64,000 nucleotides of DNA, taken from the NCBI RefSeq assembly GCF_022846255.1, contig NZ_AP025682.1; one strand, given 5' to 3'. This stretch comes from Escherichia coli. GTDB lineage: Bacteria; Pseudomonadota; Gammaproteobacteria; Enterobacterales; Enterobacteriaceae. Positions 49,829-50,243 of the stretch are shown piece after piece; position 1 is the first letter of the stretch, and each line of letters opens with the position of its first letter. The notes beneath the pieces are model-generated. The model made no database searches, was not told where the DNA came from, and saw only the letters and a list, made by a program, of their open reading frames with translations. The translations under genes were made by a program, and so were the position numbers.

Positions 49829-50032
49829 TCAAACCATCACCAGCGATAACTCTTTGCCAAGCGCCTTAGCCGCGAGCTGGACGGCGTCGATTTTTGTCGC
49901 ATGGTGCAAATTAAATAGGCGAGTAATCTCCTGTTTATGTTTGCCAATTCGCCTGGCTAACTCTTGCTGAGTGATTTCTGACTGTAAAAAAGCATTTAAC
50001 AGCAATACCTTAGAGGCGACGCTCAAAGGCAC
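49829..50032 (-). pseudogene. hicB: hicB antitoxin remnant (C-terminal DNA-binding domain only); hicA absent
   Basis: 67-aa ORF matches the C-terminal half of HicB as I remember it (PLSVASKVLLLNAFLQSEITQQELARRIGKHKQEITRLFNLHH...); an in-frame stop lies 13 codons upstream of its start and the sequence beyond is unrelated. Confidence 0.65.
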
Positions 50033-50243
50033 TTCAATAAAGTGATCGTGACTATTTAATGGCGAAGTTTACCTCCGTGTGTAATGTGCTCGAAAATAGC
50101 ACTAAATCGCCGCAACGGCAGAATGCAATGCAAAATCAGGAAGGAAGATTCCAGAATTTCTTTGCTCTAATTTGCAAAACTGAATAATAACCTCAAGAAA
50201 CGATCGGCATCATAGCGGCAAAAGGTTAGAAAAAGGTGGCGGG

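Follow-up and report, generated by a model that had tools for sequence, protein, structure and literature searches.

A non-functional relic of the hicAB toxin-antitoxin operon, very probably left by a single 445-bp deletion, between ydcR and yncJ of Escherichia coli

Gene organization between ydcR and yncJ

The 64,000-nucleotide stretch of E. coli DNA analysed here (the window, to which all coordinates refer unless another locus is named) carries a truncated hicB gene flanked by two intact neighbours. The downstream neighbour is ydcR (48344..49750, minus strand), which encodes a GntR/MocR-type PLP-dependent regulator according to its Pfam matches (GntR and Aminotran_1_2) and its RefSeq annotation. 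The upstream neighbour is the divergently oriented yncJ (50244..50474, plus strand), whose product is assigned to DUF2554 by Pfam (E = 2e-51) and by RefSeq, and beyond it lies rlhA/ydcP (50566-52569, minus strand). The hicB remnant occupies 49829..50065 on the minus strand, is classed as a pseudogene in RefSeq, and includes the open reading frame (ORF) that led to its discovery, a 67-aa frame (49829..50032, minus strand) beginning with a GTG codon that corresponds to Val72 of HicB.

Between the remnant and ydcR is a short intergenic region (49751..49828, minus strand) that the deletion described below has left unchanged. It contains promoter-like hexamers for ydcR (TTGTCA-16-TAGACT at 49811..49784), and a promoter scan returned the same matches in the window and in the intact locus. 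The 211-bp gap that separates the HicB-like ORF from yncJ is devoid of significant ORFs. A 901-bp stretch around this locus is 100% identical to the corresponding sequence of E. coli strain AR_0017, and it has matches in 5416 of the 5426 complete E. coli genomes searched.

The yncJ protein of the window is shared with all B2-type deletion alleles sampled (WP_000491567.1, named 'DUF2554 family protein' in RefSeq), and the name 'YncJ family protein' is used at the other loci inspected, including those of the second deletion lineage described below. Its third residue is serine in the window (MFSKAL) and threonine in the intact allele of strain JE86-ST05 (MFTKAL). The only non-coding RNA match that Rfam produced for the region is to naRNA4 just downstream of yncJ (50478-50514, minus strand), which scores 25 bits against a gathering score of 59.5 and is therefore sub-threshold. 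The naRNA4 motif is derived from REP elements, and the sequence at this position (gccggatgcggcg...) presumably resembles a REP repeat. We consider this match to be unrelated to the hicB remnant.

The remnant retains the linker and DNA-binding domain of HicB

Homology to HicB runs for 78 codons, equivalent to residues 61-138 (49832-50065, excluding the stop codon), and is far beyond chance: phmmer aligns the remnant with chain B of PDB entry 6HPB at E = 8.7e-44 with 77 of 78 residues identical. The single substitution relative to the crystallised E. coli HicB proteins (PDB 6HPB/6HPC and 6U0I) is P103H. The original prediction held that only the C-terminal 67 residues of HicB remain, which captured the survival of the C-terminal helix-turn-helix (HTH) part alone but placed the boundary 11 codons short.

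In full-length HicB, Pfam recognizes the HicB_lk_antitox domain (PF15919) at residues 3-67 and the HTH_3 domain at residues 88-134. The remnant thus keeps the linker and the whole DNA-binding domain and has lost essentially all of the toxin-binding domain, of which residues 61-67 are the sole survivors; no match to PF15919 was found by Pfam in the remnant. The 67-aa ORF matches HTH_3 (E = 2.1e-8). Searches against NCBIfam were uninformative, with no significant model for either the remnant or full-length HicB.

When the remnant frame is translated further upstream it reads ...RR*TSPLNSHDHFIEVPLSV..., in which the stop is a TAA codon (50069..50071, minus strand) located 13 codons before the GTG, just where it had been reported initially. 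Translation and alignment together reveal its origin. HicB sequence continues for 11 codons upstream of the GTG, and the stop arises exactly at the deletion junction, where the deletion has brought former hicA upstream sequence (GGAGGTAAAC), once located upstream of the palindrome described below, into the hicB frame. Direct reading of the 20 nt upstream of the GTG (GTCACGATCACTTTATTGAA) revealed no Shine-Dalgarno-like sequence. A complete translatable frame is therefore missing, as the TAA codon closes the frame at the junction and the only start is an internal GTG that lacks a ribosome-binding site of this type.

Two other small ORFs near the junction were set aside as chance occurrences with no family match. 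One is a 42-aa frame (50059-50187, plus strand; MAKFTSVCNV...) that crosses the junction and that in intact alleles stops after 6 codons. We attribute it to chance because it exists only through the deletion; Pfam yielded no match for it, and it has no obvious ribosome-binding site. The other is a 39-aa frame on the opposite strand (50167-50286, minus strand).

A single 445-bp gap separates the window from intact alleles

The window was aligned (alignment A1) with the intact allele of strain JE86-ST05 (locus L002), which encodes a HicB of 138 aa and a HicA of 58 aa, and with an allele from strain WCHEC115106 (locus L003) that carries a frameshift in hicA. Relative to the intact allele, 445 bp are missing from the window as one clean gap, and the remainder aligns colinearly at 97-98% identity. 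The junction lies at 50066|50067 and reads ...AATGGCGAA|GTTTACCTCC..., with one ambiguous G as microhomology.

The missing segment corresponds to positions 1968-2412 of L002 and takes in the first 60 codons of hicB, the 45 bp between hicA and hicB, the complete 58-codon hicA gene, and the 44 bp that precede its GTG start codon. Within these 44 bp are the Shine-Dalgarno sequence of hicA (GGGAGG), a TATACT resembling a -10 element, and the spacer and left arm of the palindrome GTAAACA-n4-TGTTTAC (inverted repeat I24 of L002, 2401-2407/2412-2418). By direct sequence comparison, the only part of this palindrome left in the window is the GTTTAC of its right arm, at 50067..50072.

HicA of the intact allele matches the Pfam family HicA_toxin (PF07927), and in the window its gene falls wholly inside the gap. 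Consistent with the initial reading of this locus, alignment A1 shows neither hicA nor HicB N-terminal coding sequence in the interval 50066-50243, and a tblastn search with HicA across the whole 64-kb window gave a best E value of 3.8, which does not denote a homologue. The comparison with an intact operon that had been proposed as a check on that reading thus revealed loss of the toxin gene with retention of the C-terminal HTH, rather than an intact hicA and a full-length hicB.

Probable loss of the downstream promoter and its presumed operator

Reviews of E. coli hicAB describe two promoters: an upstream promoter, P1, that depends on Sxy and CRP (a CRP-S promoter), and a promoter, P2, that is repressed by HicB through the operator hicO. 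In intact alleles, the palindrome GTAAACA-n4-TGTTTAC and the -10-like TATACT are found immediately upstream of the hicA Shine-Dalgarno sequence and start codon, the palindrome preceding the -10-like element. The palindrome is presumed to be the HicB operator of P2, given what the reviews report of P2 and hicO. This arrangement fits the published description, and therefore we infer that the deletion destroyed P2 together with its operator and left P1 in the remaining spacer.

That spacer is the retained 177 bp of the yncJ-hicA intergenic region (50067..50243). It is not a scrambled leftover, as it matches the intact distal part of this intergenic region that is located further upstream of hicA in complete alleles, and it is nearly identical in the 13 alleles compared, with at most 6 differences among them. 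Judging from the position given for P1 in the reviews, the spacer probably holds both P1 and the divergent yncJ promoter. Consensus scans of the spacer (TGCGA-N6-TCGCA and TGTGA-N6-TCACA) returned no convincing CRP-S site, and the scan for sigma-70 consensus promoters found none between yncJ and the remnant, picking up only the ydcR promoter-like sites. No terminator-like structure was found between the remnant and ydcR, and therefore any transcription still issuing from a surviving P1 may continue across the remnant in the direction of ydcR.

The five B2-type alleles sampled share two substitutions in the spacer (at window positions 50166 and 50087) that are absent from the eight alleles not of this type. 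On the hicA strand these substitutions are GCGCA to GAGCA and GAGCAAAT to GAGCACAT.

Distribution of the deletion allele

A 60-nt sequence spanning the junction was found in 1092 of the 5426 complete E. coli genomes at 95% identity or more (1050 of them identical) and always once per genome, and the deleted 445-bp segment is present in 4256. Carriers of the junction include CFT073, UTI89, Nissle 1917, ATCC 25922, LF82, NRG 857C, S88, IHE3034, APEC O1, ABU 83972, NU14, the type strain DSM 30083, and isolates of ST131. In CFT073, UTI89, Nissle 1917, ATCC 25922 and others the junction is carried as a single uninterrupted match, and every classic phylogroup B2 strain in the sample has it. Each RefSeq record inspected, including that of the identical AR_0017 sequence, annotates a hicB (or helix-turn-helix) pseudogene that is 'incomplete; missing N-terminus', and loss of hicAB from phylogroup B2 has been noted in a phylogenomic preprint (10.1101/486399). 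The remnant is therefore an ordinary pseudogene that is already known in annotation and in substance. It represents the same allele as the B2 hicB pseudogenes of CFT073 (C_RS08740) and AR_0017 (AM344_RS04185), with an identical junction, the same position between ydcR and yncJ, 99-100% identity and no substantive difference. The literature examined did not yield the precise end points of the B2 allele, the half palindrome that survives in it, or figures on its decay.

The same 445-bp junction also occurs in a second lineage of approximately 28 genomes with a diverged, non-B2 haplotype, represented by strains AST20, O166:H15 JNE070796, VCSW7, VCSW5 and AST215 (loci L005 and L007-L010, over the interval equivalent to window 49829-50110). 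This haplotype differs from that of B2 at 19 of 900 bp in ydcR, at 51 of 1000 bp in yncJ-rlhA, and at one site only 9 nt from the junction. A rarer and larger deletion is seen in strain FDAARGOS_943 (L006; NZ_CP065615.1), where both the hicB remnant and yncJ have been removed and a shortened ydcR is joined to a truncated rlhA pseudogene.

The occurrence of one junction on two haplotypes could mean that a structural hotspot underwent this deletion repeatedly. A 10-nt inverted repeat with 9 of 10 positions complementary (CGAAGGTAAA/TTTACCTCCG) brackets both end points, and the right end point falls at the loop edge of the local operator-like hairpin, features that weakly suggest a deletion assisted by a hairpin or other secondary structure. 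The suggestion is weak because the long-range stem is absent from the predicted single-strand fold, and shuffled sequence folds just as well as the region itself (z = 0.1). Inverted repeats of similar size are also common in the region, with 24 pairs in 661 nt, and direct microhomology at the junction amounts to only 1 nt. The two haplotypes are explained equally well by one old deletion with subsequent divergence or recombination, and the shared junction fits one old deletion, lateral transfer or recurrence alike. On balance we regard repeated origin as unlikely, and the matter bears only on where the allele came from and not on what the remnant is.

An independent lesion has disabled the same toxin gene elsewhere in the species. 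This lesion is a 22-bp deletion within hicA that has the direct repeat CGCA, of 4 bp, on either side (L003, 2225|2226), and it is present in 811 of the 5426 complete genomes. It leaves hicB intact and yields a frameshifted 'mRNA interferase' pseudogene. Together, the two deletions leave at least 35% of complete E. coli genomes without a working HicA at this locus.

The remnant accumulates amino acid changes

If the HTH fragment had been kept as a regulator, its coding sequence should bear the mark of purifying selection. We compared the 237-bp remnant of nine sampled deletion alleles with the same stretch of three alleles that retain full-length hicB. Changes specific to the deletion alleles comprise seven that are nonsynonymous or nonsense (P103H, K127N, K127E, H114Y, M137I, P73H and S89*) and four that are synonymous, whereas the alleles with full-length hicB show no amino acid change and seven synonymous changes. 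The difference between these ratios (7:4 versus 0:7) gives a Fisher p of 0.013, and the crude dN/dS of the remnant is approximately 0.5, the latter value being drawn from 11 substitutions in nine alleles, and neither is corrected for phylogeny. In this small sample, the purifying selection expected of a functional HTH regulator gene is thus not seen. The deletion alleles also show a change of the stop codon from TAA to TGA. Four further synonymous differences are common to all deletion alleles and one intact allele, so they are either older than the deletion or unrelated to it.

The nonsense codon S89* was found in all five sampled genomes of the second lineage, for which RefSeq notes an 'internal stop'. 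All five B2-type alleles sampled, that of the window among them, keep the 67-aa HTH frame open, with 1 to 5 residues that differ from functional HicB. Lysine 127 (window 49865-49867) has been replaced twice independently, by asparagine in CFT073-like B2 alleles and by glutamate in the second lineage, which is probably a coincidence under relaxed constraint. Overall, the substitution pattern supports a drifting pseudogene that is decaying rather than being kept, with no sign of a conserved mini-repressor.

Some activity might nevertheless persist in B2 strains. P1, now 445 bp closer, could drive a transcript through the HTH fragment into ydcR, and low-level synthesis of the 67-aa HicB domain could allow it to act in trans, for instance at the hicO-like sites of incoming hicAB elements. 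Separately, the identical junction on two haplotypes could mark a toxin-loss allele that is recurrent or laterally spread and favoured by selection. We consider this combination of possibilities highly improbable, and any residual function of the remnant would come as a considerable surprise.

Also highly improbable is a dedicated role for the fragment as a stand-alone Xre-type HTH protein. Such an orphan HicB DNA-binding domain would be expressed from the Sxy/CRP promoter, start at the GTG, and act in trans on hicO-like sites elsewhere or on incoming hicAB elements. The open frame in the window and in sampled B2 alleles, the completeness of the HTH_3 domain and the conservation of the upstream 177 bp are all compatible with such a role. 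Structures of HicB have also been solved, and the title of a 2019 paper by Manav and colleagues calls the HTH domain structurally stable. However, the GTG has no Shine-Dalgarno sequence and is preceded by the TAA codon, the presumed operator of the protein itself has been half deleted, and every RefSeq record inspected treats the sequence as a pseudogene. The P103H substitution lies inside the Pfam HTH_3 span (88-134), at a residue that we take, from the usual Xre-type layout, to be near the start of the DNA-contacting helix. Further amino acid changes have piled up elsewhere in the fragment, and the second lineage has acquired its nonsense codon, in keeping with the skewed ratio given above.

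Finally, B2 is an early-branching phylogroup, and one could imagine that the short allele is ancestral and that hicA and the 5' part of hicB were inserted later in other lineages. Horizontal acquisition is often assumed for chromosomal toxin-antitoxin loci (review PMC7167474), but alignment A1 effectively refutes this scenario: the break falls inside a reading frame and inside a domain (after residue 60, within HicB_lk_antitox 3-67), the 78 retained codons match the 3' end of a full two-domain gene colinearly and at 99% identity, one palindrome arm is left at the junction, and an insertion could not create a half-domain, a toxin gene and a promoter in register.

A relic of a chromosomal type II toxin-antitoxin operon

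We therefore conclude with high confidence that this sequence is what remains of the chromosomal type II toxin-antitoxin operon hicAB, rendered non-functional by one 445-bp deletion. Along with the toxin gene hicA, that deletion took hicB codons 1-60, which encode the toxin-binding N-terminal domain, the ribosome-binding site of hicA, and the presumed downstream promoter with one arm and the spacer of its operator-like palindrome. The deletion is probably old, since every classic B2 strain sampled and a diverged second lineage carry it. What is left is the 3' 237 bp of hicB, encoding the linker and helix-turn-helix, in a frame closed by the junction TAA and with an internal GTG as its only start, such that protein is presumably no longer made from it. 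A fragment of this kind would have no toxin to neutralise and no intact presumed operator to bind, and it is drifting, with altered residues and, in the second lineage, the nonsense codon. Direct observation covers where the deletion begins and ends, the absence of hicA, which domains the remnant retains, how frequent it is in the population and the relaxation of constraint on it. The proposal that an operator-binding domain had been retained thus stands as far as the domain itself is concerned, but the presumed operator was lost in the same deletion and the substitution pattern indicates that the fragment is decaying.

Comparison with other hicAB loci and decaying toxin-antitoxin systems

The hicAB operon of E. 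coli K-12 (hicA/yncN and hicB/ydcQ; HicAB complex, PDB 6HPB) occupies the same site between ydcR and yncJ, and the remnant shares with its HicB the near-identical residues 61-138, HTH_3 included. Unlike the K-12 operon, the remnant is without hicA, the toxin-binding domain of HicB, the hicA ribosome-binding site, the downstream promoter and an intact palindrome. With the toxin, the toxin-binding domain and, presumably, the autoregulated promoter gone, it has ceased to be a toxin-antitoxin system and to work like HicAB.

Loss of a toxin with retention of its antitoxin was originally described as a recurring decay pattern, and published examples bear this out. Most hicAB loci of Haemophilus influenzae carry deletions of the promoters and the 5' end of hicA and keep hicB (Findlay Black et al., PLoS One 2020, PMC6957337; preprint 10.1101/330480). 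As in E. coli, the natural deletions of hicAB/toxTA in this species remove promoters and toxin coding sequence and spare the antitoxin sequence (PMC6957337), and its operon shows the same arrangement of a CRP-S promoter upstream and an antitoxin-repressed promoter downstream (10.1101/330480). The two cases differ in that the common 250-bp hicAB deletion in H. influenzae leaves hicB complete, whereas the E. coli remnant is an antitoxin cut down to its DNA-binding domain. A similar fate has befallen the chromosomal ccdO157 system of E. coli (Mine et al. 2009, as cited in PMC7167474). According to the citing review, some members of the species have lost this type II system, which sits at a conserved chromosomal position, to deletions and nonsense mutations; it belongs to a different toxin-antitoxin family. 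The mode of decay seen in the remnant, in which toxin and promoter are lost first and antitoxin sequence lingers, parallels H. influenzae hicAB/toxTA, ccdO157 and the 22-bp hicA deletion at the same locus.

The locus provides a base-resolution record of hicAB loss in the E. coli lineage that includes most extraintestinal pathogens and the probiotic strain Nissle 1917, and beyond correct annotation it is of little importance. The absence of a working HicA at this locus from at least 35% of complete genomes agrees with the idea that chromosomal toxin-antitoxin modules can be dispensed with and that the toxin is the first part to decay. It also serves as a caution against carrying hicAB phenotypes established in K-12 over to strains of phylogroup B2.
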